This document shows, piece after piece, positions 5,444 to 54,399 of a DNA stretch of 64,000 nt. The stretch lies in IMG/VR virus record IMGVR_UViG_3300025364_000002. One strand, given 5' to 3'. Position 1 is the first letter of the stretch. Every line of letters starts with the position of its first letter. The stretch comes from a virus. Taxonomy: Duplodnaviria; Heunggongvirae; Uroviricota; Caudoviricetes. A model generated the notes under the pieces. It saw only the letters and a list, made by a program, of their open reading frames with translations. It did not search any database and had not been told where the DNA came from. A program made the translations under genes and the position numbers.

Positions 5444-5914
5444 TTAGGTATTAATTGGAATCCCTGCTTTGATTAGTCTTTCGAATAATTTCATATTGTA
5501 GTGCTTATAGGAACACTCATCCCTAAGTAAAGCTTGGGCATTTACCCACATTGGCAACCCTTCACGGGTCATGCAATGCAATTTGCCGCCAACAATTTTT
5601 TGTGCAAAAAAAGTAAAAGATATCATTGTCCGACCAAGTCCAACATACAGAGGAATGAGAGAACTTTTTTCTACTAAAATACCAGTCTCTTCAAAACACT
5701 CTCGAACAGCAGCATCTTTTGCGGTTTCTTTTACTTCTAAATCTATTTTGCCGCCCGGCAATCCAATGTTTTCAAATTCTTTTCTTTTTGTTATTGCAAG
5801 TATGGAACCGTCCCCACTTGGATTTAGAACCAAAACACAGGCTGACTTTGCGTTAATGAGACCTTCATCAATTTCATTTTCGGTCATAAATGTATTGATA
5901 TTTAATCTATTCAC
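5444..5914 (-). CDS. Nudix hydrolase
   Basis: Nudix box GGKIDLEVKETAKDAAVRECFEETGI (Gx5Ex7REUxEExGU). Confidence 0.8.
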   Translation of the reverse strand: MNRLNINTFMTENEIDEGLINAKSACVLVLNPSGDGSILAITKRKEFENIGLPGGKIDLEVKETAKDAAVRECFEETGILVEKSSLIPLYVGLGRTMISFTFFAQKIVGGKLHCMTREGLPMWVNAQALLRDECSYKHYNMKLFERLIKAGIPINT

Positions 5915-6146: not shown

Positions 6147-7121
6147 TTATAACCTACAGTTTTTCTTTTTCATCAAGAAGTCAATAAGGTTTTCACCCTC
6201 TTGATTTAAGAAATTGCGGTAATAAGCATTAGGATGAGAATTTTGCAAAGCAAGAATCGCCGCATCAATTCTTTTTGGGTGAAGCAAATTTGCCCAATAG
6301 CCTTTGATTGTAAACAGAAACGAATTTATTTCTGGGAACGGTATAACCGTCTGTCGTTCAAAGCGAAGATAAACTTGTTGATCGTCATTCCAAGTCCATT
6401 TGTTTTCTACAAATTTATTTGGATGCAAATTCAAAACCCTGTCAGAACGAAAAGAGATAGCACCAACCCTTTGAACTGGTGTACCCATGCGAATTATTCC
6501 ATTTACCATAGCGGATGGATTTTTAATGATTGGACGTCCGTCAACCTTCGTTACACGCTCATGAATCTGAGCAAAGGATTTGCCCACAACAGTCGAAGCA
6601 CTCCAGCCAGCGGGCGACATTAAATGAGCGGTAGAAACAAAATCATTCCCGTCTGAATTTACCGAGCAAATAACAAGATCTTCTGGGACTTGCATAGCCA
6701 ATGCATCTAAAGCATCAGCATAGTCGGGCTTGTTTCCAAATAAATCTTCAGCACCGATAAGTTCGTAATCTTTATCAAACTGAATAAACTCCAACTTAAA
6801 CGCAACCCAAAGCTTGTTGTTGTTTTCATGCCATTTGAACAAATGAGGATAATCAGTACAAAGCCGATCAATAATGAACCTGATAATTGGTGCTCGATTT
6901 ATAGCTCCCGCAAACTGATAATAACTAGATAAATCTTCTTTATGAGATTTGTTTTTGTTATCCATGAACCAAGAGTGAAATTCATCAATTTGAAAGATGT
7001 TTCTGTGTTTTTGTGGAACTGCTGCAAGTTTTGTCATCACAGCAGAAGAAGGTGGAAGGCTCCCACCCTTTAGGGGGTAATAATCTAAAACATCAGTATC
7101 TTCCAACATAGGAATCCTCAT
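6147..7121 (-). CDS. Hypothetical protein
   Basis: 324-aa ORF; no motif recognised. Confidence 0.55.
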   Translation of the reverse strand: MRIPMLEDTDVLDYYPLKGGSLPPSSAVMTKLAAVPQKHRNIFQIDEFHSWFMDNKNKSHKEDLSSYYQFAGAINRAPIIRFIIDRLCTDYPHLFKWHENNNKLWVAFKLEFIQFDKDYELIGAEDLFGNKPDYADALDALAMQVPEDLVICSVNSDGNDFVSTAHLMSPAGWSASTVVGKSFAQIHERVTKVDGRPIIKNPSAMVNGIIRMGTPVQRVGAISFRSDRVLNLHPNKFVENKWTWNDDQQVYLRFERQTVIPFPEINSFLFTIKGYWANLLHPKRIDAAILALQNSHPNAYYRNFLNQEGENLIDFLMKKKNCRL

Positions 7122-11926: not shown

Positions 11927-12559
11927 CTAACAATAACACTCATACATTGGTTTACGACACCTGTTACAGGTTCTGGAATTCTTCCTTTTGAAGATTTCCC
12001 AGCAAACTTTGCAATAAGTTCCTGCAAAATGACGACCTACCGGTGGATTAGGAAGTTCTTTTTTGCAGGTCGAGCAAATATACAAGTCTTCTTTGGCGAA
12101 CTTAATCAAGTTAAATAGCGTTACCACGAAAAGAGGGGCTCCTTCTTCAACCAAATTATCAAAACTGGAAATGCCAAAGGGACCTTCCTTACCCAAGGCT
12201 GACATGCCATCGTCCGCCCAACGGTCAAAGACTATTGTGGTGTTTGGAAAACCTTCTTTATTCTCACAAGATACAGAAACCATTATAGTAACATAATTTT
12301 TTTTATCCCCCCCAGGTGGTTTTTCTCTACCAACACATTCACCAGTAACAACATTGTAGGAAAGTGTGCGATTGACAGTGACAGAACGATATTTGGCGGG
12401 GTGATACGGGTTTTCCCTTAAAGAAAGGATTTTTTCCTTGGCCTGACTCATTACCCAAATTGATGGGCTTTGATCACCAATCATGCATCGTGTACATAAT
12501 TCGTATTCGCCATAACCTGACCAACATTGGTTTTCACAATTTTTGCAAATATTTGGCAT
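11927..12559 (-). CDS. Cys-rich zinc-ribbon protein
   Basis: Several CxxC pairs at both termini (CKNCENQC, CTRC ... CSTCKK, CKVC, CNRCRK...CYC). Confidence 0.5.
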   Translation of the reverse strand: MPNICKNCENQCWSGYGEYELCTRCMIGDQSPSIWVMSQAKEKILSLRENPYHPAKYRSVTVNRTLSYNVVTGECVGREKPPGGDKKNYVTIMVSVSCENKEGFPNTTIVFDRWADDGMSALGKEGPFGISSFDNLVEEGAPLFVVTLFNLIKFAKEDLYICSTCKKELPNPPVGRHFAGTYCKVCWEIFKRKNSRTCNRCRKPMYECYC

Positions 12560-12595
12560 TTAGTTTTCTAACATCAAAGATTTTATAAAATCTTG

Positions 12596-13102
12596 TCAAA
12601 ACTCAACTGGTTTAGTTGCCTTTTCAGTTTTCTCCATAAGTGGCTGTGACGCTTTTTCAAAAACAGAGACAGTGCGAGGATTGTGCTTCAATCTATCATA
12701 GAAATTGAGTATAGGTGTGAAGATAATTCCAAGGAAAATAAACACAACCATGATAGTATAAATAGGCAAAGCAATAATGGCAGATGGTAGTATCAGCAAT
12801 GCGTGATGCCATTCTACCAAATAAAATTTATCGTTCATTAATTTGGCTACTGTTTCGTTTGTAAATTTACAACAAAAACTCGCAGACCAAAGAATGCCAG
12901 CCAAGCCCCCAATAAAGCCAATGACGGCACTCATGAACCAAATTAGCATCATGGCGTTAGCCATTGATTTGCCAACCAAGGCGAAAAGCAGACTTGATTT
13001 GAATCCAGTGCCCAGCACAAAGACCCAAGATACGGGGATTGCTGACAATACTGTTGCCAAAATAACCAGCAACAAAGCTCTAACAATGTTCAGTCGGTAC
13101 AT
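12596..13102 (-). CDS. Polytopic membrane protein
   Basis: At least four hydrophobic helices in 168 aa. Confidence 0.5.
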   Translation of the reverse strand: MYRLNIVRALLLVILATVLSAIPVSWVFVLGTGFKSSLLFALVGKSMANAMMLIWFMSAVIGFIGGLAGILWSASFCCKFTNETVAKLMNDKFYLVEWHHALLILPSAIIALPIYTIMVVFIFLGIIFTPILNFYDRLKHNPRTVSVFEKASQPLMEKTEKATKPVEF

Positions 13103-13109
13103 ATTATCT

Positions 13110-14525
13110 TTACAATAGTGTTGGAAATAGAACTACATCACGGAGAGTGGTTTGGTTAGTCATAATGGCAACAAATCTGTCCACTCCCATTCCCAAGCCT
13201 GAACAAGGTGGCATGCCATATTCCATGCACTCAAGAAAATCTTCCTCAAGCATCATGGCCTCGTCATCGCCGTCCTCACGGGCAGCCATCTGTTCCTCCA
13301 ACAACTGTCGCTGTAGAACAGCGTCAGTAAGCTCCGTGTAACACTTCACAAGCTCCCAGCCATTGACAATAAACTGCCACTGCTCGACCGTGCGGCCGTC
13401 TTCGCTTCGCTGTGCGAGAGGACTCATGTGAGCCGGGTAATCCTTGAGGAAAATCGGCTGAACAAGGTTTGGCCGCACCTTCTCCTTAAACATTTCGTCG
13501 ATTTCCTTTGCAGAACTCAACGACCAGGGCGAAATTCCAGTATATTGCTCAAATACCGCAGCATAAGACCTTACCGGAGGATCGGTAAAATCAAGCTTGG
13601 TCCCCTGATATTCGACAATCATCCTCTTAATAAGAGGAGAAGCGGGATCGTTTGAATATTCATGACCGGCCGCAAAGAAAAGGTAAGACAAAAGCATCTT
13701 AAACAACTCAAGGTTGTCCATATAACTCATGTAAGCGCCATACCACTCAACCGAGGTAAACTCCTGCAAGTGGGAAGGATCGACCCCTTCATTGCGAAAG
13801 TTCTTTCCGATCTCATACACTCGATCAAAAGAAGCTGCAACAGCACGCTTCAAGTAAGTCTCAGGTGCAATACGAAGATAAAGATCGGCATCCAGTGCAT
13901 GATGATGCGTCTGAAAAGGACGAGCCTGGGCTCCTGAAGCCCGAGTCTGTAAGATCGGGGTTTCCACTTCCATGAAACCGTAGCGCTCCAGAAACTTACG
14001 AAGCTCCGAAACAATCCGAGAACGGGTCACGAAAACCTGCTTCACATCAGGGTTCATGACAATATCAAGGTAACGCTTACGAAGACGTAGCTCCGGATCA
14101 ACAATTCCATCAACCTTATTTGGGAAGGGATGGATTGGATCACGGAGAACCTTGAAAGCACGGTTTACCAAAACCGTCTTCTCGCCAGTAGTGGAAGTCC
14201 ACATTTCACCTTCAATGGTGATAATACTGCCCATCTTTACAGCCTTCATCCACCCCTTGAAGCTTTCGGGGGTTTCACGCTTGTTGAAACAAAACTGAAT
14301 CTTTCCAGACTGATCGACAAGCTTTCCGAAAGCAATGGAGCCAAGTCGTCGAAAATTAACAACCCGACCCGCAAGAGTAACAGCGTGGCCGTCCCTAAGC
14401 TCAAGAGCATTGCTGGCCATCCAAGTTTGGTAGACGCCCTTTTCCACAAACTCCGAAAACTTCGGCTTGCGGACGGTCTCGGCCAACTGTTCAAGAGTAC
14501 CTTCTTCATTACTTAGAGTAGACAT
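13110..14525 (-). CDS. lysS: Lysyl-tRNA synthetase, class II (N-terminal OB anticodon-binding domain plus class IIb catalytic core)
   Basis: Class IIb motif 2 KNFRNEGVD...EFTSVEWYGAY; 471 aa; strong SD (AAGGGAGAGA) upstream. Confidence 0.8.
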   Translation of the reverse strand: MSTLSNEEGTLEQLAETVRKPKFSEFVEKGVYQTWMASNALELRDGHAVTLAGRVVNFRRLGSIAFGKLVDQSGKIQFCFNKRETPESFKGWMKAVKMGSIITIEGEMWTSTTGEKTVLVNRAFKVLRDPIHPFPNKVDGIVDPELRLRKRYLDIVMNPDVKQVFVTRSRIVSELRKFLERYGFMEVETPILQTRASGAQARPFQTHHHALDADLYLRIAPETYLKRAVAASFDRVYEIGKNFRNEGVDPSHLQEFTSVEWYGAYMSYMDNLELFKMLLSYLFFAAGHEYSNDPASPLIKRMIVEYQGTKLDFTDPPVRSYAAVFEQYTGISPWSLSSAKEIDEMFKEKVRPNLVQPIFLKDYPAHMSPLAQRSEDGRTVEQWQFIVNGWELVKCYTELTDAVLQRQLLEEQMAAREDGDDEAMMLEEDFLECMEYGMPPCSGLGMGVDRFVAIMTNQTTLRDVVLFPTLL

Positions 14526-14598
14526 ATCTCTCCCTTTGCTTGGGTTACCTACTCAGCATACCATGGGGAAGTTCTAACCTAAACCGGTTATATAAAAT

Positions 14599-15045
14599 TC
14601 AGTGGGGGATGATTTTCATGCGATGATTTTCCATCATTGCATCTATTTTAGGCAACAAATCCATTGCTTTCCTGGTCATTTCTTCCAGCGAAAAGTTTTT
14701 AATCGGAGTATCCGTGCAATAAACAAGAAAACTTCTATATTGTTGCAATATTGGGATTGGATTGCCGTCATAAGTTGGTAGTTCAATTGGCTCAAGCTGA
14801 GCTTTAGTGGTCCACCAATATTGGTTGTCTGGTGTTAAAATTTTAACATGGTTTCGCTTTTCATCTACTACCAAAACCGAGTCAGGAAGTTTGGATTCGT
14901 TTACAAAACTTTTCCTTCCTCTCACATCGTTTCCGTAGACTTGTTTGCCCATTATGGCGAATCTTGGATTGTTGCAAATGCGTTCAGTAAATTTAAAAAA
15001 ATGCCCAACGTAGGGTTTAAATTTTAATTCTTTTGGCTTTGCCAC
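14599..15045 (-). CDS. Hypothetical protein; possible paralogue of 15533..15985
   Basis: Shared pattern around VLVxDExxNxVK. Confidence 0.45.
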   Translation of the reverse strand: MAKPKELKFKPYVGHFFKFTERICNNPRFAIMGKQVYGNDVRGRKSFVNESKLPDSVLVVDEKRNHVKILTPDNQYWWTTKAQLEPIELPTYDGNPIPILQQYRSFLVYCTDTPIKNFSLEEMTRKAMDLLPKIDAMMENHRMKIIPH

Positions 15046-15533
15046 TATTTTCCTCCAATTAGGTCAAAAAACTGCTGTTCAGTAATGATATCAACTCCAA
15101 GTTTCATAGCCTTCTTTAACTTTGTTGATTTTTCAGAGTGGGTTGGGCTTCCTACAATCAAATAATCACAATATTTAGAAATGTGAGATTTAAATTTACC
15201 GCCCTTAAGCTTGATTAGATTTTTGAAATAATCACGAGACACTGAAAGGTCTCCAGTGATTGCAAAAGATTTACCACCGAAATCATTATTAATTTTTATT
15301 AAACGGAGGGTGTCAGTAGTAACGAACGTTGTTTGCTCATCCCAAATTATTTTTACGAATTTATTATCCACCTGCTCTATTATTAGAGCAACAGTACCAG
15401 CAGGAATTGTTTCTCTTCCAGTCCAAAGATCGGGAGATTTGAGCGCATGGGTTTTTTGCGTGGTGATGGCTACCCTACCAACCAGATCAATTGAACCAAC
15501 TAATCGTCTAAGGTTTTGATTTTCAATCGTCAT
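15045..15533 (-). CDS. BRCT-domain protein
   Basis: C-terminal GKSFAITGDLS...DYLIVG...KLKKAMKLGVDIITEQQF matches the BRCT consensus (as in ligase/PARP C-termini). Confidence 0.55.
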   Translation of the reverse strand: MTIENQNLRRLVGSIDLVGRVAITTQKTHALKSPDLWTGRETIPAGTVALIIEQVDNKFVKIIWDEQTTFVTTDTLRLIKINNDFGGKSFAITGDLSVSRDYFKNLIKLKGGKFKSHISKYCDYLIVGSPTHSEKSTKLKKAMKLGVDIITEQQFFDLIGGK

Positions 15534-15985
15534 TATTTATTTTTCTTATTGGTAGGGCTTATTTCATCTGCATATTGCCTGAGCAAATAAGCGACTCGCT
15601 CTATTTCTTCAGCATAATTTGAAAGAGCTTCAAAGTCTTCTTCTTTGCTTTTCATCTCTCCAGCAAGAAAAAGTAATTCCTGGATACACTCTGATATGTT
15701 ATCCACTTCTTTAAAGAGGCCGTTCTTGACTTCTTTATGGAGGAAGAATTTTGGAATCCACACAAAGGAACCAGTTGCGAGTGTGACTTTTACTCTAGTG
15801 TTGCTTTCATCTGTAACAAGAACAGCTTCGCCAAAATCTGACAAATCAAGACAAATACGTGTTTTATTTTCATGGAAACAGGGAATATCTTTATGTTGCC
15901 GCAATGTAAAAACACGTCCTATGAATGGTTTAAGATAAGGTTCATCTCTCTTCTTAGCAGGCATCCTAAATCCCAAAAAAAGCAA
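15533..15985 (-). CDS. Hypothetical protein
   Basis: 150-aa ORF. Confidence 0.45.
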   Translation of the reverse strand: MLFLGFRMPAKKRDEPYLKPFIGRVFTLRQHKDIPCFHENKTRICLDLSDFGEAVLVTDESNTRVKVTLATGSFVWIPKFFLHKEVKNGLFKEVDNISECIQELLFLAGEMKSKEEDFEALSNYAEEIERVAYLLRQYADEISPTNKKNK

Positions 15986-16048
15986 TCAACAACGTTTGTT
16001 GACCATTGCTTAAATATCCTGTGTTTTTACTGACAAAGAGGAAAAATT

Positions 16049-18363: not shown

Positions 18364-18735
18364 TCAAGACTCCAGGTATTTCTCTAGTTCAACCAGAACC
18401 TTGTTGGCAATTTCTTCTGCTGAATCATCTTCAACTTCATCAGCCAACGTAAGCTCATAGAAAACATCATCCCCTCCATGATCAAGGGTGATGTTATACT
18501 TTTCCTCAAGAGAGGAAACCAGCTTGCCAAATTCTTCTGCGAAGAAGATGTTTTCAGGATGATATTGGTTGCTCACAAGCGACCTTTCCTCGATATCATT
18601 CTCATCTTCTTCAGCAAAAGGATTCCATTCGGTCCACAGGACTCGTAGTTTTAGGTTGTGGGTCTGCATCTTATTCTCCCAATACAATTTTGTCGAACGC
18701 TTTACTCTTTTTTGAGGTTGAAGTTGTAGACACAA
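18364..18735 (-). CDS. Acidic hypothetical protein
   Basis: 123-aa ORF rich in D/E. Confidence 0.45.
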   Translation of the reverse strand: MCLQLQPQKRVKRSTKLYWENKMQTHNLKLRVLWTEWNPFAEEDENDIEERSLVSNQYHPENIFFAEEFGKLVSSLEEKYNITLDHGGDDVFYELTLADEVEDDSAEEIANKVLVELEKYLES

Positions 18736-19439
18736 CAGTCAAGTCCAATGGCAACTTCGAGCACCAACAGATCTTTTTCTACAACTTTGTTTTTTGCCTG
18801 AAACTTTGCCCTGATAGGAAAATCAGTTCGCAGAGAAATCGAACAGACCTCCATCCACTTGTCGCCATTATCAACCTCAACATCCATTGTTTTTTGGCTG
18901 TAAGATGGAAGACGGTCAGAAACAACAATTCTAGTTGGCAAATGAACCATTTCTGCAATCATTTTTCGAACAGGTTCTAGCACTGCCGAATGATAGTCAT
19001 TTAGTGTATCTGCTGTAAAAATGCACTGAAATTCCTGCTGATAAAACTCTTTCAGCCGCATGTTTTTGGTAACCTGGTCCTGTTCCCGTCGAAAACTTTT
19101 ACCGGTCTGCCAAACCACAAAAGGTGGGCGAGTTGGCTTTGAAAGTCCCCGGAGTAGATGGGCTGCGTATGCATACGAACCAGGCGTGGTTTCAGGTCGT
19201 AGAACGAGTCCAGGATTTTCCCCTTCTTGAAACCAAACATCCTCACGTGTATAGTTTGGGTTAATCAGAGTTTCAGGAGTAAGGATGGGAGTTTCAACCT
19301 GAAAAAAAGCCCAGGCCGGATTCATTTCGAGCAATGCCGTCTTTAGTTCAGCCAAAAAGTGTTGCTCAAACACTCTTCGTAGTCTGATTTCACGTTCAGA
19401 CCAGAAAATAAGACCGTTGCTGTTGTACAGGCTATCCAT
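18702..19439 (-). CDS. Class IIa aminoacyl-tRNA-synthetase-like catalytic core (truncated paralogue lacking an anticodon-binding domain)
   Basis: Motif-2-like WQTGKSFRREQDQVTKNMRLKEFYQQEFQCIF (fRxE...R..EF.Q.E pattern of the HisRS/ProRS/ThrRS/GlyRS group). Confidence 0.5.
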   Translation of the reverse strand: MDSLYNSNGLIFWSEREIRLRRVFEQHFLAELKTALLEMNPAWAFFQVETPILTPETLINPNYTREDVWFQEGENPGLVLRPETTPGSYAYAAHLLRGLSKPTRPPFVVWQTGKSFRREQDQVTKNMRLKEFYQQEFQCIFTADTLNDYHSAVLEPVRKMIAEMVHLPTRIVVSDRLPSYSQKTMDVEVDNGDKWMEVCSISLRTDFPIRAKFQAKNKVVEKDLLVLEVAIGLDCCVYNFNLKKE

Positions 19440-19749: not shown

Positions 19750-20478
19750 TCAGTTGTATTCTGTTCCGCCCTTACGGGTGAGGTAATCACCGCTAACAGA
19801 CTTTAGCTGAACACGGCCAATTTCTTCGCTCCAGCGTTCTACCGTAGGTCGAACAACAACACCCTCACGGATATGCATTTCCTTACCGGAAATAGTCTCG
19901 AAGCCGTCAGTGTACTCGTACAAAACCTTCTTCGAGAAGGGCCCACGGTAAAGCACCGGAACACGCTGAAGACCAAGTCTCTTGCAAGCCGCATCAAGCT
20001 CAGAGTCGTTCAAATAACTGCCAGACCCTGGACGTCCAACATAAATATCAAATACTCTAAAACCGATCTCGACGTCCTTGTCGGCAGAACTGCCATAAGA
20101 AAGGTCCTGAACACCACGTCCAAAAATCTCTCCAAGAACGTAAACCGGCTGTGGATCGAAATCGTGTTTTAGCTGATGACCAAAAGCAAATGAAATACGG
20201 TTGTCCATGTTGTAGTGTCGAGCGACACGCACGTATAGATTCGTCTTGTTGGCTTCGGCATCATACTTCATCGCCAGTCCACGAGCCGAAAGACCCTTGG
20301 ATGAGATAATGAGACGGCCCTCCTCGGGATGGGCATCCCTCGGCGGCATAAGGCCAATCATACACCAGGTGTTATGAACAACAATGCCTTCAGCAATATA
20401 GTTGTTGTTGCCACCATCAATCTCTAAATCATAGAGATCACTATCACTTTCAACATACTCAATCTTAACACAGCGCAT
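19750..20478 (-). CDS. C-terminal half of a fractured Rnl2/Rnl5-family RNA ligase: 36-aa IntC (split-intein C fragment) followed by the C-extein
   Basis: N-terminus MRCVKIEYVESDSDLYDLEIDGGNNNYIAEGIVVHN|T is intein blocks F/G ending HN plus nucleophile T. The extein carries ligase motif III VYVLGEIFG, motif IV EGVVVR and motif V LKSVS. It is in the same frame as ORF 20773..21567. Confidence 0.8.
   Translation of the reverse strand: MRCVKIEYVESDSDLYDLEIDGGNNNYIAEGIVVHNTWCMIGLMPPRDAHPEEGRLIISSKGLSARGLAMKYDAEANKTNLYVRVARHYNMDNRISFAFGHQLKHDFDPQPVYVLGEIFGRGVQDLSYGSSADKDVEIGFRVFDIYVGRPGSGSYLNDSELDAACKRLGLQRVPVLYRGPFSKKVLYEYTDGFETISGKEMHIREGVVVRPTVERWSEEIGRVQLKSVSGDYLTRKGGTEYN
20371..20478 (-). other. 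IntC, split-intein C-terminal fragment (36 aa)
   Basis: Length and sequence style match natural IntC fragments (e.g. DnaE IntC, 36 aa, ending ...N). Confidence 0.75.
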
Positions 20479-20764
20479 TTTTTACTCTTTCTATCGTTTT
20501 TTCTTTTTGATTGTTCCAATCACTTTCCCAAACAATTAGAACTTTGTACCCTCTTTTGAGCAAGGCGGCGGTGCGCCTTTTATCTCTTTTCCATTGTTGC
20601 CCAACAGTCCTGGAAATCCAAGAGCAATATTCGCTTGGGTCGTGAAATTTTGTTGGATTACAATGGAACATATCTCCATAGAATTCCAAGATAACTTTCT
20701 CACTTTTCAACAAGCCGTCTACGATAAACCCTGATATAATTTCTTCACGATTTGACGCCTGCAT
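20465..20764 (-). CDS. Free-standing Vsr-like (very-short-patch-repair fold) homing endonuclease inserted between the intein halves
   Basis: FYGDMFHCNP...WKRDKRRTAALLKRGYKVLIVWESD parallels the Vsr FxDGCFWHxH...RDxxxxxxLxxxGWxVLxVWE pattern; different frame from the flanking exteins. Confidence 0.65.
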   Translation of the reverse strand: MQASNREEIISGFIVDGLLKSEKVILEFYGDMFHCNPTKFHDPSEYCSWISRTVGQQWKRDKRRTAALLKRGYKVLIVWESDWNNQKEKTIERVKNALC

Positions 20765-20772
20765 GGGACTTG

Positions 20773-21567
20773 CTACATGATTGGACTTTCAATATCTTCA
20801 TCAGGCAAAAGTTTGCCAGCTTCCACCCACATTTGTCGGTCACGTGAATAAACGGGGTGATCCTCGGTTAAGGTGAGAGTAGAACCGTTTTCTAAGGTAA
20901 GCTTTACCCATTTTTTATCTTCACTGTTTAGCCGACGCATGCGACCAGTAATAGGTCGCTCAATATATTCCTTGCTTTGTTCATTATAAGATAAAACCGA
21001 CTGAATTGTTTTATCAGCCACTACTTCTGCGATAGACCGCTCGCTTCCATCTACAAGTCGGACCATACTTGCTTCATGCAAGCATCCATGAAGTTTCTCA
21101 GTGAAAACAACCTCTTCACCTTCCTCAAGAATGTGAGGAAAACGCTTAAAATTTTCGATATCGTACTTCAAGGTACGGTCCTGACCAGCAGCGAACACCT
21201 CACCGGAAAGATGGGCCGGAATTGGAGGCTCCCACTTGGTAATTCCAAGAATATTAGCAACATCAGCACCCTCTTGCCACTCAGGACGTGCAGGATACAC
21301 AAGTCCCTGTGAAAGGATGCCACGAAGACGAATGGCCTTTACACGATTCTTTGCCTTTCCGGCAAGCTTACCCTCAAGACCCATTTCACGGAGGAGAGCC
21401 TGAGGAACGACAGCCTGTTCTGGAATGTAGGCAACGAGATCACCGCTCTTAAACTGGTCCTTGCGGACAATTGCTTGGTAATCGCCCACCTGGGCGAGTT
21501 CTAAAGCATCAGCATTGGGGTGTTCAAGAACAGTAATCCGTTCGACAGTTACAGAAAAAGTTGACAT
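20773..21567 (-). CDS. N-terminal half of the fractured RNA ligase: OB-like N-domain, then the nucleotidyltransferase motif I, then a 103-aa IntN
   Basis: ...FTEKLHG|CLHEASMVRLVDGSE...TLTLTEDHPVY...LLPDEDIESPIM*. KxHG is the ligase lysine-adenylylation motif. C1 plus TxxH (block B) is an intein N-fragment. The stop codon directly follows IntN. Confidence 0.8.
   Translation of the reverse strand: MSTFSVTVERITVLEHPNADALELAQVGDYQAIVRKDQFKSGDLVAYIPEQAVVPQALLREMGLEGKLAGKAKNRVKAIRLRGILSQGLVYPARPEWQEGADVANILGITKWEPPIPAHLSGEVFAAGQDRTLKYDIENFKRFPHILEEGEEVVFTEKLHGCLHEASMVRLVDGSERSIAEVVADKTIQSVLSYNEQSKEYIERPITGRMRRLNSEDKKWVKLTLENGSTLTLTEDHPVYSRDRQMWVEAGKLLPDEDIESPIM
20776..21084 (-). other. IntN, split-intein N-terminal fragment (103 aa)
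   Basis: Begins with Cys after KLHG; has block A (CLHEASMV) and block B (TLTLTEDHP). Confidence 0.75.
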
Positions 21568-33337: not shown

Positions 33338-33889
33338 TCATTGAATTTCTCCGAGTGCTAACTTGAGGATATAACGAGTAATCTCTCGGTCTTCTTCCCT
33401 GCGCTTTTGCTGTGCGTAATCCAATCCAAGTCTGTTGTAGTCCTCTTCATCCAATTTCGAAACCTTTTTGTGATATCTTTTTACCTTGTTTTCAAATGAA
33501 GTGTAATGTTCGGTTGGATTGACCAACGACAAAAATGCTTCATTTTCTCCTCGGCGCCAACGATTTGTTGTGGTGGATGCGGTACAAGATATAACCTTGC
33601 AATTAGGCCAGTTTCTAGCGCCCGCCATGCACAATAAATCTGCACCTCGGGCACTTACTGCCTTTTGCTTATATTCGCTTCCAAGCTCTTTACCTTTGGG
33701 AGACACATAAGCTCGATAAATAAAACTCTGGCTTTCCTCGTATGAATATGGCACATGAATAGCATGCAAGATCCTACTTGCACCAAGAGTCTGGGCGAGT
33801 TGATGAATACCAATTCCACCACCAGTTACCACAAAAGCAAGTTTGGGACCTTGGTAACGATGTACGAAATCATCAAATACGTCTTGCAC
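33338..33889 (-). CDS. Hypothetical protein with N-terminal Gly-rich Rossmann-like loop (FVVTGGGIGIHQ)
   Basis: 183-aa ORF; GGG loop; translationally coupled (overlapping) with the ARH gene. Confidence 0.45.
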   Translation of the reverse strand: MQDVFDDFVHRYQGPKLAFVVTGGGIGIHQLAQTLGASRILHAIHVPYSYEESQSFIYRAYVSPKGKELGSEYKQKAVSARGADLLCMAGARNWPNCKVISCTASTTTNRWRRGENEAFLSLVNPTEHYTSFENKVKRYHKKVSKLDEEDYNRLGLDYAQQKRREEDREITRYILKLALGEIQ

Positions 33890-34613
33890 ACTTTTCTCGC
33901 AATCTTTCCAGTTTTTCGTCTAGGCTTCGAAGGTAGTCTAATCCATACGGACCATTTTCTAAACCTTCATAAAGATGCTGTGGTAGGTCGTTTTCAATTT
34001 CTTTACAACAAGAACCAATGCCCAGCGCCATGGCCGCAATTGAATCTACGTCGCCCGTATAATCAATACACTCTTTAAGGCATTCGCTCAAAGAATTATT
34101 TCTCAATACTGATGAAATTGCTGCCTTGACACAGGGAATAGCATCACTAGTACAACGTTTTCCTACCGGCCAAAGATCTTTTTTATCGTTGAAAATTCTA
34201 CTTGAACCACTACCAAGTACAAGGAAATCAACCAAATTATTCTTTTTGCCATCATTGTAAAGAAAATAGTGTGTAGCCAAAGCAACTGCTTGCGAGGAAG
34301 CAATTGCATCAGGCGTATCGTGAGTCACTTGAGCTTGCATTCTAGAAAATGTTAAGACTTTATAAACGTTCGGTAGGTATCCGATCGAACACGATCTCAT
34401 TGCTGCGCCGCATTTATTTGACTTCTTCGACAGCTTGGCAAGCAACTCTTTACCAGACTCAACTTGATCTAAGATAGCTTGAAAACGACGTGAATATGCA
34501 TTTCTTGCATCACGTTTATACACCTCCACCCATTTGTTTGCGAGTTTGAGCGGAAGTGTATTTGGATCAAAATGGTCGTTTTCCAAAAGATACTCTGTTA
34601 CACCAATTGACAT
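33873..34613 (-). CDS. ADP-ribosylglycohydrolase (DraG/ARH family)
   Basis: C-terminal signature YTGDVDSIAAMALGIGS corresponds to the GGDTDT(I)AA(I)AGA metal-binding motif of the family. Confidence 0.7.
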   Translation of the reverse strand: MSIGVTEYLLENDHFDPNTLPLKLANKWVEVYKRDARNAYSRRFQAILDQVESGKELLAKLSKKSNKCGAAMRSCSIGYLPNVYKVLTFSRMQAQVTHDTPDAIASSQAVALATHYFLYNDGKKNNLVDFLVLGSGSSRIFNDKKDLWPVGKRCTSDAIPCVKAAISSVLRNNSLSECLKECIDYTGDVDSIAAMALGIGSCCKEIENDLPQHLYEGLENGPYGLDYLRSLDEKLERLREKCARRI

Positions 34614-35382: not shown

Positions 35383-35985
35383 CTATTTGGGAGCCACCTC
35401 ACGGAAATTGGTTAGCATTGAATTTCGTACCGGTTTCCATTTTTCTTCGTAATGCTGCCAATCTTCACTCAAATCATCCATTATTTCTTTAAAAAGATGA
35501 TTAACTTCGCTGTATCTAAAAATAGATCGTGAAGTTGCAATCTGGATTCCGAAGCTAATGATTCTGATTGAGTGCCACAAAGACTTCTTGCCTCGCTCAA
35601 GTTCTTTTTCACGATCATACGGCGAAACAAATTTTTTCTTAGCTTTGACCCAGGAATGACTAGACTTCTCTGAAAGAGAGTGCCTTAGTCTAGCTTTATC
35701 CAGTTTAAACTTCCAAGGAACATCAGGTTGAATAAGAACCTTGTCACTTGGAAGATGATAGCACTCCAAGGCCATAATGTGATGTTCATCTAACAAACGT
35801 TGGAAATGATTTGGAGTGAGATACCTGATATTAATCAAACCCTTGTTCATTTCGCCTAGACGAACCTGATCCTTTATTGCGACATAGTCCCAATCTGAAT
35901 CAGAACGAGCAGTGCCATACACTCTGCTCCCAAAAGGATAAAGTGCATAGTAACTGTCCTTAGGCAATTGAGGTTGATGTTGCAC
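35383..35985 (-). CDS. Minimal nucleotidyltransferase (Pol-beta superfamily) protein
   Basis: GS...D.D signature FGSRVYGTARSDSDWDYV; 200 aa; abuts NAMPT gene with 1-nt spacing. Confidence 0.55.
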   Translation of the reverse strand: MQHQPQLPKDSYYALYPFGSRVYGTARSDSDWDYVAIKDQVRLGEMNKGLINIRYLTPNHFQRLLDEHHIMALECYHLPSDKVLIQPDVPWKFKLDKARLRHSLSEKSSHSWVKAKKKFVSPYDREKELERGKKSLWHSIRIISFGIQIATSRSIFRYSEVNHLFKEIMDDLSEDWQHYEEKWKPVRNSMLTNFREVAPK

Positions 35986-35986
35986 A

Positions 35987-37573
35987 CTAACCTCGATATC
36001 GATTAATCAGGGACTCCACCTCAGTCTGGAGTAAATCACTTCTTCGACCCGCAGAAAATGGCATTTCATCGAATTCACGGATTACACGAGCCTCACAGGT
36101 CATGAAATCATCAGTGAAGCCAGGGCCGAAAGGTTCATCAGAAGTGCCATCGTAATAGGTAACCAATGCATCATCACCAAGTTCGCCAGGTGCCGCAAGA
36201 GTGACCCCAGAGGTAAGGGCAATATCATCACGGAGAACCATGCATTCTGGGAGAGTCTGCTTACCAGGAGAATTGCTCAACTTGATAACTGGACGATCGT
36301 CGTTGCCGACAGCACAGAGAGCAAATTTGGTGCTCATGTGGTCCCTGTTGATATTGTTACGAAGATGCCCGCCAATACTGAAAATACCACATCGCCATGG
36401 AACAAAACCGGCCGCAAGAGCTGCGTCGGTAATTTGAAGAACACTATCAAACGATTCACCGTTACCAACAATAAATCGAAGCGTGGTAGAAACATGACGT
36501 GTGACACCATCAGCACACAAGTGCTCAGCCATAAGCCCAGCCTGATGTGCCTTTTGTAGAGTACCAATCACCATATCTGTCGAATCGCCTGAATCAGGAC
36601 GGGCAACAACGGTTCTTCCAGAGCCATCCGCCTGAGCCCTAAGGGCAAGGGGGATAAGGTGTTTCTCAAGCGCAGCCCAATAATCATAACAATCACCAAC
36701 CATGCTGAGTAATTCGTGATTGTCAGCAGTATCGTACATGTTCTCATAACAGTCGCCTTCGACTGCATAACCCTGCACGATGCGATGCGCAAGAGCTTTC
36801 ACCGAAGAGCCAAAAGCAGCTGGTGCGCCATTTTTCCAGTTCTGGAAAGCAGCACGGAACGTGTCCGTACCAAACCAGACATAGTTGTGAACCCGACCCA
36901 CCAATTCCGATTCCATTGGAGATGCTGCTGCCCTGTCGCCGAAATCATGAATCATGAGTCGGGCAAAAAACATGCACTCCTCGTCGCTAACCGAGTCAGG
37001 CTCAAATTTCCTGATGAGATTGTAGGCATACTTCAAAAAGTGTCGAGCGGCGGTCAAACGCTCCGTGGCAGCCCAAACATGCAGCAGGGTGGACTCGAAC
37101 CAAGGAACCAGCGGTCCAAACCCAGGCTCTGTAGCCTCCACCCTGAGGAATGGCTCGTGCGGATAAATTACAGAGCCTTCGGGCATTCCAACGACCTTGA
37201 GTGGAAGGTAGCCTCCGTATTCCTTGACGACTCGTCGCCACATTTCCTCAGGAAATTCGAAATCGTCAAAAGATCCGTCGTACTTTGCCTTTCGGCCCTT
37301 CAAAAATTCGATAGTCTCATCGATTTCGGAATTGGTGATCGGATCGTAAAAAAGCAAGTCGCAAAGCTGTTGCAAACCAGCAAAGACAATACGCTGGTCT
37401 TCAGGCGAATAAAACGGCTCATGTGCATGAGGAAACTTCCTGAAAGTACCGTAATACTTGGAATTTTCCGTAGCCTCTTGGCTCTCGAAGGTAAATCCGT
37501 TAATGGTGTAAGCGTCACTCCAGAGCATTCTGGGTGTTCTATGATATCTTCTTGCGGGTAGTTTCTTTGCCAT
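35987..37573 (-). CDS. nadV: Nicotinamide phosphoribosyltransferase (NadV/NAMPT-like, type II PRTase family)
   Basis: 528 aa with family-typical segments (IHDFGDR, long central PRTase core); GC-rich relative to flanks. Confidence 0.75.
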   Translation of the reverse strand: MAKKLPARRYHRTPRMLWSDAYTINGFTFESQEATENSKYYGTFRKFPHAHEPFYSPEDQRIVFAGLQQLCDLLFYDPITNSEIDETIEFLKGRKAKYDGSFDDFEFPEEMWRRVVKEYGGYLPLKVVGMPEGSVIYPHEPFLRVEATEPGFGPLVPWFESTLLHVWAATERLTAARHFLKYAYNLIRKFEPDSVSDEECMFFARLMIHDFGDRAAASPMESELVGRVHNYVWFGTDTFRAAFQNWKNGAPAAFGSSVKALAHRIVQGYAVEGDCYENMYDTADNHELLSMVGDCYDYWAALEKHLIPLALRAQADGSGRTVVARPDSGDSTDMVIGTLQKAHQAGLMAEHLCADGVTRHVSTTLRFIVGNGESFDSVLQITDAALAAGFVPWRCGIFSIGGHLRNNINRDHMSTKFALCAVGNDDRPVIKLSNSPGKQTLPECMVLRDDIALTSGVTLAAPGELGDDALVTYYDGTSDEPFGPGFTDDFMTCEARVIREFDEMPFSAGRRSDLLQTEVESLINRYRG

Positions 37574-40272: not shown

Positions 40273-41520
40273 TCAGCCGGTCCTTTTAGTTAAATCAAAA
40301 TGCGTTTCAATGAAGTTGATAACCATTTCAGGATCAGCCGTTGAGCGGAAAAGAACGTTAGGACCATGTTTGTCTAACATGACAGCCCCAATCTTATCCG
40401 ACTCAAATAGTTTAATACCACTAGCAGTGTTTTGTCCACACTGATGCGAACCACACTCAAAGAACTTTTGAGAAACCTTAGGAATAACATTTTTAGTTTT
40501 CATTTCGCAATGAAAATGAACAACGCAATCAAATTGATCATATTGTCGAAGCAATTCAAATTGACTTCGTACACCCGCACTAGGCTTTCCACCAATCGAT
40601 TCGACAATTTCATTGTCAGAAAATGACACCATGGCAAGATCAAGCCCACCAGGTTCATTATAATTCTGTTTTCTTCTCGAAGAGAAGATACACTTTTCAT
40701 TAACCAAGAATCCAAAATGACCAACGGTTTTGCCATCGAAAGCTTGGTAAGCCCCTCGTTTTACACAATGTTCAACTACGGTCTTCAGCGTAGAAGGAGC
40801 TGTATGCCATGCAATGGGTACATCGGCCACAACTCTTGTTCTTGTAAATTCATTTGTTGAGCGAGCTAATGTAATATCGATTAATTCATTCAATGCTTCA
40901 AAACGATCAGTGGTTTTTCCGTAGGCAGCCATTTCTGGCGTAAGAATCATATTCATGCGAGTATGAACATCATTAGCGAGGACAAGATTGCAACTGTTTT
41001 GCTTTAACAGTTTCATACCTGCTTCAAACTGCTCCTCTTCGGTTGCGCCAGCTGTTGTTTTAAAGCCTACCAAAAAAATGTCCTTCCTCGTTTTGCGAAT
41101 ACGACCAATGATCTTATCCGCTGGTTTCATTGAAAGCATGTGTAAACCATTTGATGTCTTCAGCCTTGGTTGTTCTTTTCCAGACTCGGTTACTCCAACA
41201 TTATATTCATTTCCAGCGAGCACATTACCCTCAAAATCACAGAGTGCAGCACTCATGAAGAGGATTTTTGGTGCTGGATCATCCAGCAAATTGTCAATAA
41301 GCTTGGAAATGTCATCGTTTGTTTCAAGCGAATCCCCACCAGCCATTCTTGTTAGGTGGAGTTGAATTTTTCGATTTGAATCCTTAGATAGGATTAAATT
41401 CCTGAGGATTTTCGCTGTTTTGCCGTAGGCTGGAGCGCTTAGCGCTAAATGTGGCCTGATATGGAAAACAGTTCCTCCACCGATAATATGAATTTCTTTG
41501 GTAGCTTCTTTTGGCGACAT
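40273..41520 (-). CDS. Two-domain protein: N-terminal DFP/CoaB-like (phosphopantothenate-cysteine ligase fold) domain plus an unassigned C-terminal domain
   Basis: GGGTVFHIRPHLALSAPAYGKTA, MSAALCDF and FLVGFKTTAGATEEE...NLVLANDV parallel the CoaB segments (RFIxNxSSGKMG, AAAVADY, LVGFAAET...ANDV). Confidence 0.45.
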   Translation of the reverse strand: MSPKEATKEIHIIGGGTVFHIRPHLALSAPAYGKTAKILRNLILSKDSNRKIQLHLTRMAGGDSLETNDDISKLIDNLLDDPAPKILFMSAALCDFEGNVLAGNEYNVGVTESGKEQPRLKTSNGLHMLSMKPADKIIGRIRKTRKDIFLVGFKTTAGATEEEQFEAGMKLLKQNSCNLVLANDVHTRMNMILTPEMAAYGKTTDRFEALNELIDITLARSTNEFTRTRVVADVPIAWHTAPSTLKTVVEHCVKRGAYQAFDGKTVGHFGFLVNEKCIFSSRRKQNYNEPGGLDLAMVSFSDNEIVESIGGKPSAGVRSQFELLRQYDQFDCVVHFHCEMKTKNVIPKVSQKFFECGSHQCGQNTASGIKLFESDKIGAVMLDKHGPNVLFRSTADPEMVINFIETHFDLTKRTG

Positions 41521-48387: not shown

Positions 48388-48422
48388 TTTTTTTGCTTTC
48401 CAATTTGTTTCATCTTTTTAGC

Positions 48423-48496
48423 GAGACCTGTGGGATTTGAACCCACATCACTCCGGGTTAAAGCCGGCCGCATTACCAATTTTCTGCCAAGGTCCC
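48423..48496 (-). tRNA. tRNA with anticodon UUA (ochre-type suppressor tRNA; type I, 74 nt)
   Basis: Hand-folded: acceptor GGGACCT/AGGTCTC (one G-U), U8, D-loop with GG, anticodon stem CCGG/CCGG with 7-nt loop C-U-U-U-A-A-C (U33, anticodon UUA, A37), 5-nt variable loop, T-arm GTGGG-TTCAAAT-CCCAC, discriminator G. Confidence 0.65.
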
Positions 48497-53892: not shown

Positions 53893-53942
53893 GCTTTATT
53901 CCATAAAAAAGCCACACCATATAGGTGTGGCCTATTATTTAT

Positions 53943-54029
53943 TGGACCCGATCGGAATTGAACCGATGTCCTCAAGATCGCCTAAAAAAACTTCTACGTT
54001 ACCTAGTTTGATTTTCAGATTACCGGTCC
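53943..54029 (-). tRNA. tRNA-like element (87 nt): T-arm ATCGG-TTCAATT-CCGAT, acceptor GGACCGG/CGGGTCC (one mismatch), discriminator A; internal arms not resolved
   Basis: Reverse complement folded by hand; possibly a type-II tRNA or degenerate tRNA. Confidence 0.3.
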
Positions 54030-54399
54030 GAGGTATCAGACAACCAACCGGGTTCTTTCATTTGAAATCTTGATCAGACAGCCAATAGAAATCTAACTCT
54101 AGTCTAATCCAGTCCTAATAACGACGCCTTATAGAATGCAAGGACACTCAAGCTATAAGACGGCTCTCATCAAGCAGCGAGAGCAAGAGGTGCATTGTCT
54201 GCATTTATAATCGTTTATTGGATTTAAGTGGTTCTAAACACCCACCGTAACGCCATTTTTTCTTCTTACCCCAAGTCGAAACCAGTACGGGCCCATGTCA
54301 AAGAACAATACCTTGAGAGTATACCTAGTAAGTATTAGGTTGTAAACTGCTTGACTTCTTTCTTTTTGGTGTCATTTACTTCAAAATCTTGCTAAAAAT

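Follow-up and report, generated by a model that had tools for sequence, protein, structure and literature searches.

What does a phage gain from a complete lysyl-tRNA synthetase (LysRS) gene, and does the gene belong to a phage at all? The gene considered here lies on the minus strand of a 64,000-nt stretch of IMG/VR record IMGVR_UViG_3300025364_000002, and this whole stretch is called the window. It was first noticed as a synthetase gene a few kb away from an RNA ligase gene and a phosphoesterase gene, and a common function in protecting or replacing the lysine-decoding apparatus was then proposed. The present analysis points to another answer: the gene probably encodes an active LysRS that supplies Lys-tRNA-Lys during infection, as one of the genes with which a huge phage supports translation.

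By homology, the enzyme would be expected to act as a dimer. Its class II core would activate lysine with ATP to form lysyl-adenylate, its OB-fold domain would recognise the anticodon of tRNA-Lys, and lysine would then be transferred to A76. The resulting supply of Lys-tRNA-Lys, the most likely role of the enzyme, would presumably benefit the phage, and LysRS would be one part of a translation-support repertoire together with tRNAs, transfer-messenger RNA (tmRNA), a methionine aminopeptidase and other genes resembling aminoacyl-tRNA synthetases (aaRS).

Identity, active site and fold of the LysRS

The original prediction had described the open reading frame (ORF) as a complete class IIb LysRS. 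A domain search, which had been proposed as a check, bore this out with the exact coordinates: Pfam found both the tRNA-synt_2 core and the tRNA_anti-codon domain (Table 1). The FRNEG sequence of motif 2 was located at residues 243-247, and the strong Shine-Dalgarno sequence was recognised as a purine-rich tract, AAAGGGAGAG, with a GGGAG core 4 nt before the ATG. A promoter and terminator scan around LysRS found nothing beyond shuffled expectation at the gene start.

The best-scoring NCBIfam models for the query were LysRS models. In a sequence search of the PDB the top 34 matches were all LysRS (9slz LysRS, 1.5e-100; E. coli LysU, 1.4e-94), with EpmA/PoxA and aspartyl-tRNA synthetase far behind. 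EpmA/PoxA (GenX), the lysyl transferase of elongation factor P, has a catalytic core without an anticodon-binding domain; this identity was rejected for the query, which has the OB domain and scores 186.8 with TIGR00462 against a cut-off of 286.9. Judged from its sequence, the product of the gene is a full-length class IIb lysyl-tRNA synthetase (EC 6.1.1.6).

Active-site residues of E. coli LysU were transferred to the query via the Salmonella LysS reference. The equivalents of LysU G216, E240, R262, E264, H270, F274, E278, Y280, E421, E428 and R480 are kept in the query and in 119 of 119 relatives; in motif 2, query residues R244, E246, H252, F256, E260 and Y262 correspond to LysU R262, E264, H270, F274, E278 and Y280. 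All the lysine-pocket residues (G216, E240, E278, Y280 and E428 in LysU) are present, as are four of the five ATP/Mg2+ residues (R262, H270, E414, E421 and R480), the fifth, E414, being replaced by Gln. Four positions of the query are unlike E. coli, namely N271L, E414Q, N424K and F426Y, and E414 of LysU is a metal ligand. However, an L/Q/K(N)/Y signature at these positions was found in 80 of 80 cellular LysRS from GTDB, which belong to many phyla and include those of Frankia, Streptomyces, Christensenella, Fibrobacter and Lachnospiraceae, so that E414Q and the accompanying changes are a subfamily trait and not decay. Catalytic decay was rejected on this ground, E414Q, N424K and F426Y being found throughout a large subfamily of cellular LysRS, and motifs 1-3 are intact, contrary to what a non-enzymatic paralogue with degenerate motifs would look like.

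Conservation extends beyond the active site. R54, F66 and Q77 of the OB domain are invariant in the family alignment, and 92 of the 101 columns in which 81 cellular LysRS show at least 95% conservation are kept in the query, with mostly conservative changes at the others (N-terminal and OB region, 16/18; core, 76/82). The AlphaFold2 model (predicted local distance difference test score, pLDDT, 81.9; predicted template modelling score, pTM, 0.79) has a five-strand barrel at the OB domain; its confidence is low at the N-terminus, at residues 196-216, a loop that contains G198 (LysU G216), and in the motif-2 loop (residues 244-253). When the model was compared with the PDB by Foldseek, the top 50 matches were all LysRS, with template modelling (TM) scores of 0.73-0.79, and the best one was T. 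thermophilus LysRS-tRNALys (TM 0.79, 40% identity). The ratio of nonsynonymous to synonymous substitution rates (dN/dS) against three relatives was 0.084, 0.046 and 0.119; the gene is, by this measure, kept by strong purifying selection. The enzyme is predicted to be catalytically competent, apparently with tRNA-Lys as its substrate.

Compared with bacterial class IIb LysRS (LysS/LysU; T. thermophilus 9slz, E. coli 1e1o and 1bbu, G. stearothermophilus 3e9h), the query agrees in its fold, in its division into two domains, in motifs 1-3 and in the ligands of lysine and ATP; its identity to the Thermus enzyme is 40%, and its L/Q/K/Y active-site signature is that of the Actinomycetota/Clostridia-type subfamily. 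It differs from the cellular enzymes in being encoded by a phage, in a few clade-specific substitutions and in its N-terminus, where an unrelated 47-residue segment stands in place of the helical extension. The residues ahead of the OB fold number 39-66 in cellular LysRS, 46-55 in the small sub-clade of the query and 12-26 in most other members of its clade.

Phage context and clade of the LysRS

The identical LysRS gene is present, with the same neighbours, on 16 contigs from independent assemblies, including ENA contigs of 307,594 bp and 461,030 bp, both of which exceed 200 kb. The ORFs of the window are mostly short and nearly all on the same strand. Its gene content includes several families known only from PHROG, a T4 gp63-like RNA ligase, homing endonucleases and an intein, as well as DNA methyltransferases, a sigma factor, NAMPT and a MazG-like protein. 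The product of 40273..41520, a phage-only protein, is 46% identical to its counterpart in an uncultured 595-kb phage, the next matches being Caulobacter jumbo phages.

These observations bear on whether the gene could be the housekeeping lysS of a bacterium, brought here by a wrong assembly or classification of a cellular or plasmid contig, an origin for which three observations could be cited: one clade member comes from a Candidatus Paceibacterota metagenome-assembled genome (MAG), the LysRS matches in the annotated phage collection are mostly host contamination, and the window has no structural phage gene. The recurrence of the gene and its neighbours on independent contigs, the phage families around it, the affinity of the neighbouring protein to huge and jumbo phages and the equally phage-like character of the Paceibacterota contig nevertheless make this origin exceedingly improbable, and it also conflicts with the distance of the gene from every cellular LysRS, described below.

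That contig (L100; GCA_041660845.1, JBAZVS010000001.1, 318,917 bp), although deposited as a Paceibacterota MAG, carries a LysRS of the clade together with an array of 11 tRNAs, HNH, Acb5-like, IF1, SpoU methylase and RNA ligase genes and many small ORFs without assigned function; it has the look of a huge-phage contig that was assigned to a bacterium in binning. Most LysRS matches in the annotated phage collection were host contigs filed as phage. Many 'phage' records named after Listeria, Staphylococcus, Salmonella, Enterococcus and Acinetobacter carried ordinary host lysS, epmA or aspS on short unannotated contigs, an apparent host contamination.

Searches of a large protein database returned many relatives of about 430-475 aa that are 50-87% identical to the query. 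When the clade was clustered at 90%, at least 18 clusters were on contigs of more than 100 kb and nine on contigs of more than 200 kb; 11 clade loci were found in IMG/VR. The annotated phage collection gave no match to positions 12000-16000 by megablast, and a protein search of it returned no member of this clade, all matches being at most 38.5% identical (best true-phage match, LR756504.1, 33%). The closest LysRS from GTDB species genomes was 48% identical to the query, and no cellular sequence found exceeded 48-49%; the nearest were mostly of the Actinomycetota type. A tree of 209 sequences was built by neighbour-joining; in it, 124 metagenomic and IMG/VR sequences formed one clade without a single GTDB member, and on a subsample this clade was recovered in 100 of 100 bootstrap replicates, apart from all cellular sequences. 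On this evidence the LysRS lineage is old and phage-restricted and not a recent capture from a host.

A phylogeny had been proposed to find the donor of the gene. It placed an Actinomycetota-type group as sister to the phage clade in 64-95 of 100 replicates. Because the two peptide patterns used to retrieve GTDB sequences came from the phage clade itself, and neighbour-joining is a simple method, the donor lineage is indicated, not established.

Role of the LysRS among translation and RNA repair genes

The original prediction also held that virus-encoded aaRS are rare outside giant viruses, a view now outdated. Huge phages carry up to 15 aaRS per genome, with tmRNAs and genes for ligating tRNAs cut by host defences (Al-Shayeb et al. 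2020, Nature 578:425, PMC7162821), annotated LysRS genes are present among the genomes deposited with that study, and a 2026 review notes aaRS of bacterial origin in large phages. The phage examined here likewise has a genome of more than 200 kb with aaRS, tRNAs and tmRNA, and its LysRS is related to, and distinct from, the bacterial enzymes; in contrast to the published huge-phage aaRS, its lineage appears here as a single deep clade confined to phages and not as a gene lately taken from a host. The aaRS of giant eukaryotic viruses (Mimiviridae, Klosneuvirinae, Tupanvirus) also accompany viral tRNAs in very large genomes, but those viruses belong to another realm and infect another domain of hosts, and the LysRS described here is of independent, bacterial-type origin.

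Synteny was analysed by tblastn in 16 related loci, with at most 10 kb on each side of LysRS; among them are two near-duplicate pairs. tRNA genes flank LysRS in 11 of the 16. A tmRNA gene lies near it in five (L008, L009, L010, L011 and L013), all among the 11 IMG/VR loci, four being called by ARAGORN and one more by Rfam. The region of about 84 kb that comprises the window and about 10 kb past each of its ends encodes tRNAs Leu(CAA), UUA, Ser, Pro and Gln and one tmRNA, the window proper having the tmRNA and two of the tRNAs; a second aaRS-like gene is also present. The depth of the lineage, its shortened N-terminus, the strong purifying selection on it and its frequent position beside phage tRNAs and tmRNA support a long-term upkeep by huge phages of translation parts of their own. 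The result adds an apparently functional LysRS to the catalogue of huge-phage translation genes; it opens no new mechanism, the enzyme being ordinary for its type of genome.

Several findings weigh against an active phage LysRS that charges tRNA-Lys. The query falls slightly under the curated cut-offs of both NF001756 (450.9 against 468) and TIGR00499 (413.6 against 427.6), and its N-terminal 47 residues are without a match to LysRS models and poorly modelled. The clade has a few substitutions of its own at positions that are near-invariant in cells, among them the equivalent of LysU R401, which is Gln in the query and mostly Ala in the clade. No tRNA-Lys gene was found in the 84 kb around LysRS, so that the enzyme may serve the tRNA of either host or phage, and no capsid or terminase gene in the stretch examined. 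The score shortfall coincides with the unmatched N-terminal residues (about 45), since the NCBIfam alignments begin at residue 43-48. As for the missing structural genes, the gene is assigned to a phage on the basis of gene content, contig size, the membership of relatives in IMG/VR and the similarity of a protein to those of jumbo phages, so that the support for a phage origin is strong but indirect.

The RNA ligase and phosphoesterase genes that prompted the proposal of a lysine-specific system are real (Table 1). The ligase belongs to the Rnl1 family, as a distant member (67 bits with TIGR02308, against a cut-off of 242), and its KxDG adenylylation motif is intact (KMDG at residues 106-109, with K106). 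In T4, Rnl1 and Pnkp repair tRNA-Lys cleaved by PrrC, and the presence here of an Rnl1-family ligase with its catalytic lysine motif recalls that system; T4 itself is without a LysRS. Together, LysRS, ligase and phosphoesterase could form one system that repairs or replaces lysine decoding after attack by a PrrC- or PARIS-like anticodon nuclease. The three genes lie within about 11 kb on one strand, and in relatives an Rnl1 gene is found 1.7 kb downstream of LysRS (L103) and a phosphoesterase gene 1.0 kb downstream (L014); tRNA-Lys is moreover a documented target of phage-defence nucleases that phage tRNAs counter (PMC11464382, PMC10264068).

Nevertheless, such a system is unlikely, and the proposal of one found no support in the loci compared. 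Of the 16 loci, just one (L103) has an Rnl1 homologue within 10 kb of LysRS and two (L102 and L014) have a phosphoesterase at that distance, and about 20 unrelated genes separate ligase and LysRS in the window. Among the called genes of the 84 kb, the search for a polynucleotide kinase or Pnkp found no kinase family and just two weak P-loop-like strings in small unrelated ORFs; the phosphoesterase is, by its sequence matches, a generic one and not a Pnkp. The lack of a tRNA-Lys gene applies here also, the single case near LysRS in the 16 loci being one of 11 tRNAs in an array. Past the left edge of the window lie genes for a cREC domain protein, an RNase T-like protein, a second phosphoesterase and a Macro domain protein. 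The ligases, phosphoesterase, cREC and Macro genes match a set of generic RNA-repair genes known from earlier work on jumbo phages (PMC7824862), a module in which nothing specific to lysine is apparent.

Another tRNA substrate would give the LysRS a more specialised function. It might charge variant phage tRNAs that the host enzyme handles poorly, either a nuclease-resistant tRNA-Lys or the UUA tRNA, which would place lysine at some UAA codons. The latter (48421..48496, minus strand; Rfam, 54.4 bits) is a class-I tRNA whose anticodon would read ochre UAA; it has G73 as discriminator and an acceptor stem beginning G1-C72/G2.U71/G3-C70. It is encoded 34 kb from LysRS, and a single base distinguishes its anticodon from UUU, that of lysine; E. 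coli is known to have ochre suppressors that arose from tRNA-Lys and insert lysine, and the clade is old and phage-specific. However, bacterial tRNA-Lys usually has A73, not the G73 found here, and TAA is a normal stop in the window, where it ends 38 of 109 ORFs and genetic code 11 gives 86.5% coding; a recoding of TAA via the UUA tRNA was rejected for the window on these grounds. The UUA tRNA matches other phage tRNAs at 39-49 of 75 positions and is no nearer to tRNA-Lys or tRNA-Gln than to unrelated tRNAs, a pairwise comparison that is uninformative; two pattern scans of IMG/VR on its ancestry returned either nothing or chance matches inside coding sequence. Finally, the OB residues conserved in cellular LysRS are kept, and there is thus no sign of an altered anticodon specificity. 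Charging of variant tRNAs is improbable as the role of the enzyme. That the lineage was kept for so long to charge nuclease-resistant phage tRNA-Lys variants, or even the UUA tRNA, a task beyond the host enzyme that would let lysine decoding go on when defences destroy the host tRNA-Lys, is a long shot; LysRS would in that case be the protein-level counterpart of the counter-defence by phage tRNAs.

A role outside translation was also considered. LysU-type enzymes, such as E. coli LysU, synthesise diadenosine tetraphosphate (Ap4A). The phage LysRS might make dinucleotides of the Ap4A type, which the NUDIX hydrolase and phosphoesterase would degrade, or might provide Lys-tRNA for a non-ribosomal transfer. 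A NUDIX hydrolase gene (5444..5914) and the metallophosphoesterase gene are 7-9 kb from LysRS in the window and in L102, and there is a precedent for the use of aminoacyl-tRNA in phage DNA modification, that by Mom, which uses Gly-tRNA (PMC13219725). This linkage, however, is kept only in the nearest relatives, no aminoacyl-transferase partner was identified, and both the complete domain for anticodon binding and the tRNA-related conservation speak for tRNA charging as the activity under selection. We consider a non-translational role very unlikely, and the supply of Lys-tRNA-Lys for translation in infected cells remains the probable function of the enzyme.

Neighbouring genes and other features of the locus

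The two genes directly upstream of LysRS, which encode a 148-aa protein and a BRCT-domain protein, adjoin it only in relatives at least 64% identical, and a gene for a Cys-rich protein is kept downstream. Synteny is limited to these three genes and to the closest relatives. Because the Cys-rich gene directly follows LysRS in relatives, the 168-aa ORF that lies between them here is an insertion specific to this phage.

Table 1. Position of the LysRS gene, its parts and selected neighbours in the window
Feature	Coordinates	Strand	Evidence and remarks
LysRS coding sequence	13110..14525	minus	471 aa, ATG start, stop codon included; ORF list, Pfam, NCBIfam, PDB sequence search, AlphaFold2 and Foldseek
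Shine-Dalgarno-like tract AAAGGGAGAG	14528..14537	minus	Purine-rich; GGGAG core ends 4 nt before ATG; direct sequence reading
N-terminal 47 residues ahead of OB fold	14385..14525	minus	NCBIfam alignments start at residue 43-48; pLDDT 40-60 at residues 1-30
OB-fold anticodon-binding domain, residues 49-122	14160..14381	minus	PF01336 (tRNA_anti-codon), 1.1e-09; Arg54/Phe66/Gln77 triad
Class II catalytic core, residues 144-469	13119..14096	minus	PF00152 (tRNA-synt_2; D, K, N type), 6.3e-73
Motif 1, residues 183-193, GFMEVETPIL	13947..13979	minus	Alignments; invariant P190
Motif 2, residues 243-262, FRNEG...H...EFT..EWY	13740..13799	minus	Residues mapped with Salmonella LysS and E. coli LysU as references
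Motif 3, residues 443-454, GLGMGVDRFVAI	13164..13199	minus	GLGMGVDR; R450 corresponds to LysU R480
148-aa protein and 162-aa BRCT-domain protein, upstream neighbours	14599..15533	minus	Pfam BRCT; kept in 5/16 loci
168-aa predicted membrane protein	12596..13102	minus	Starts 8 nt past LysRS stop; no homologue in 16 related loci
Cys-rich 210-aa protein, downstream neighbour	11927..12559	minus	Kept in 3/16 relatives
T4 Rnl1-family RNA ligase, 407 aa	2654..3877	minus	PF09511, 3e-15; phrog_562 (T4 gp63 family), 6.6e-43, nearly full length
Calcineurin-like metallophosphoesterase, 282 aa	4477..5325	minus	PF00149; phrog_1649; TIGR03729, 39 bits against cut-off 148

The tmRNA gene of the window (53940..54294, minus strand; Rfam, 127 bits) is phage-encoded and specifies the tag ADNAPLALAA; the tmRNAs of the relatives, a few kb from LysRS in the five loci named above, have tags of the ANDSSYALAA type. 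About 9 kb past the right end of the window (L096, 699..779), ARAGORN called an 81-nt tRNA-Ser with the anticodon ACU, which is not in normal use; the call may be wrong, or the gene may contain an intron or be a pseudogene. The tRNA arrays that adjoin LysRS in two relatives contain a group I intron in L006 (13461..13659; Rfam, 66 bits) and a tRNA match of 121 nt in L013 (14349..14469), which suggests intron-containing tRNA genes in these phages.

The second aaRS-like gene (18702..19439, minus strand) encodes a 245-aa fragment of a class IIa aaRS core, nearest to glycyl-tRNA synthetase (NF003211, 1.7e-15, model positions 163-304 only). It is without an anticodon-binding domain, and none of the 16 related loci has it. 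Published huge-phage genomes likewise have short proteins annotated as 'tRNA synthetase class II'.

A gene for NAMPT (phrog_448, 1.8e-42) adjoins one for a nucleotidyltransferase (phrog_388), with an ADP-ribosylglycohydrolase gene close by; this group occupies 35383..37573 and 33873..34613 on the minus strand. We take this pair to resemble the phage NAD+ salvage pairs reported against NAD-depleting defences. At 6147..7121 (minus strand), a 324-aa protein resembles the alpha subunit of haem-dependent oxidative N-demethylase (PF11927, 1.7e-24), an enzyme family unusual in a phage; the gene is kept in L102.

A second RNA ligase, of the DRB0094/PF09414 family, is split in two halves at 19750..21567 (minus strand). 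The N-terminal half carries an intein N-terminal region (20773..21567) and the C-terminal half an intein C-terminal region (19750..20478), and a 99-aa endonuclease-like ORF (20465..20764) lies between them. In L102, an 84%-related phage, the same ligase is intact as a single 367-aa gene; the arrangement in the window looks like a split intein or a 'fractured gene' with a free-standing homing endonuclease.

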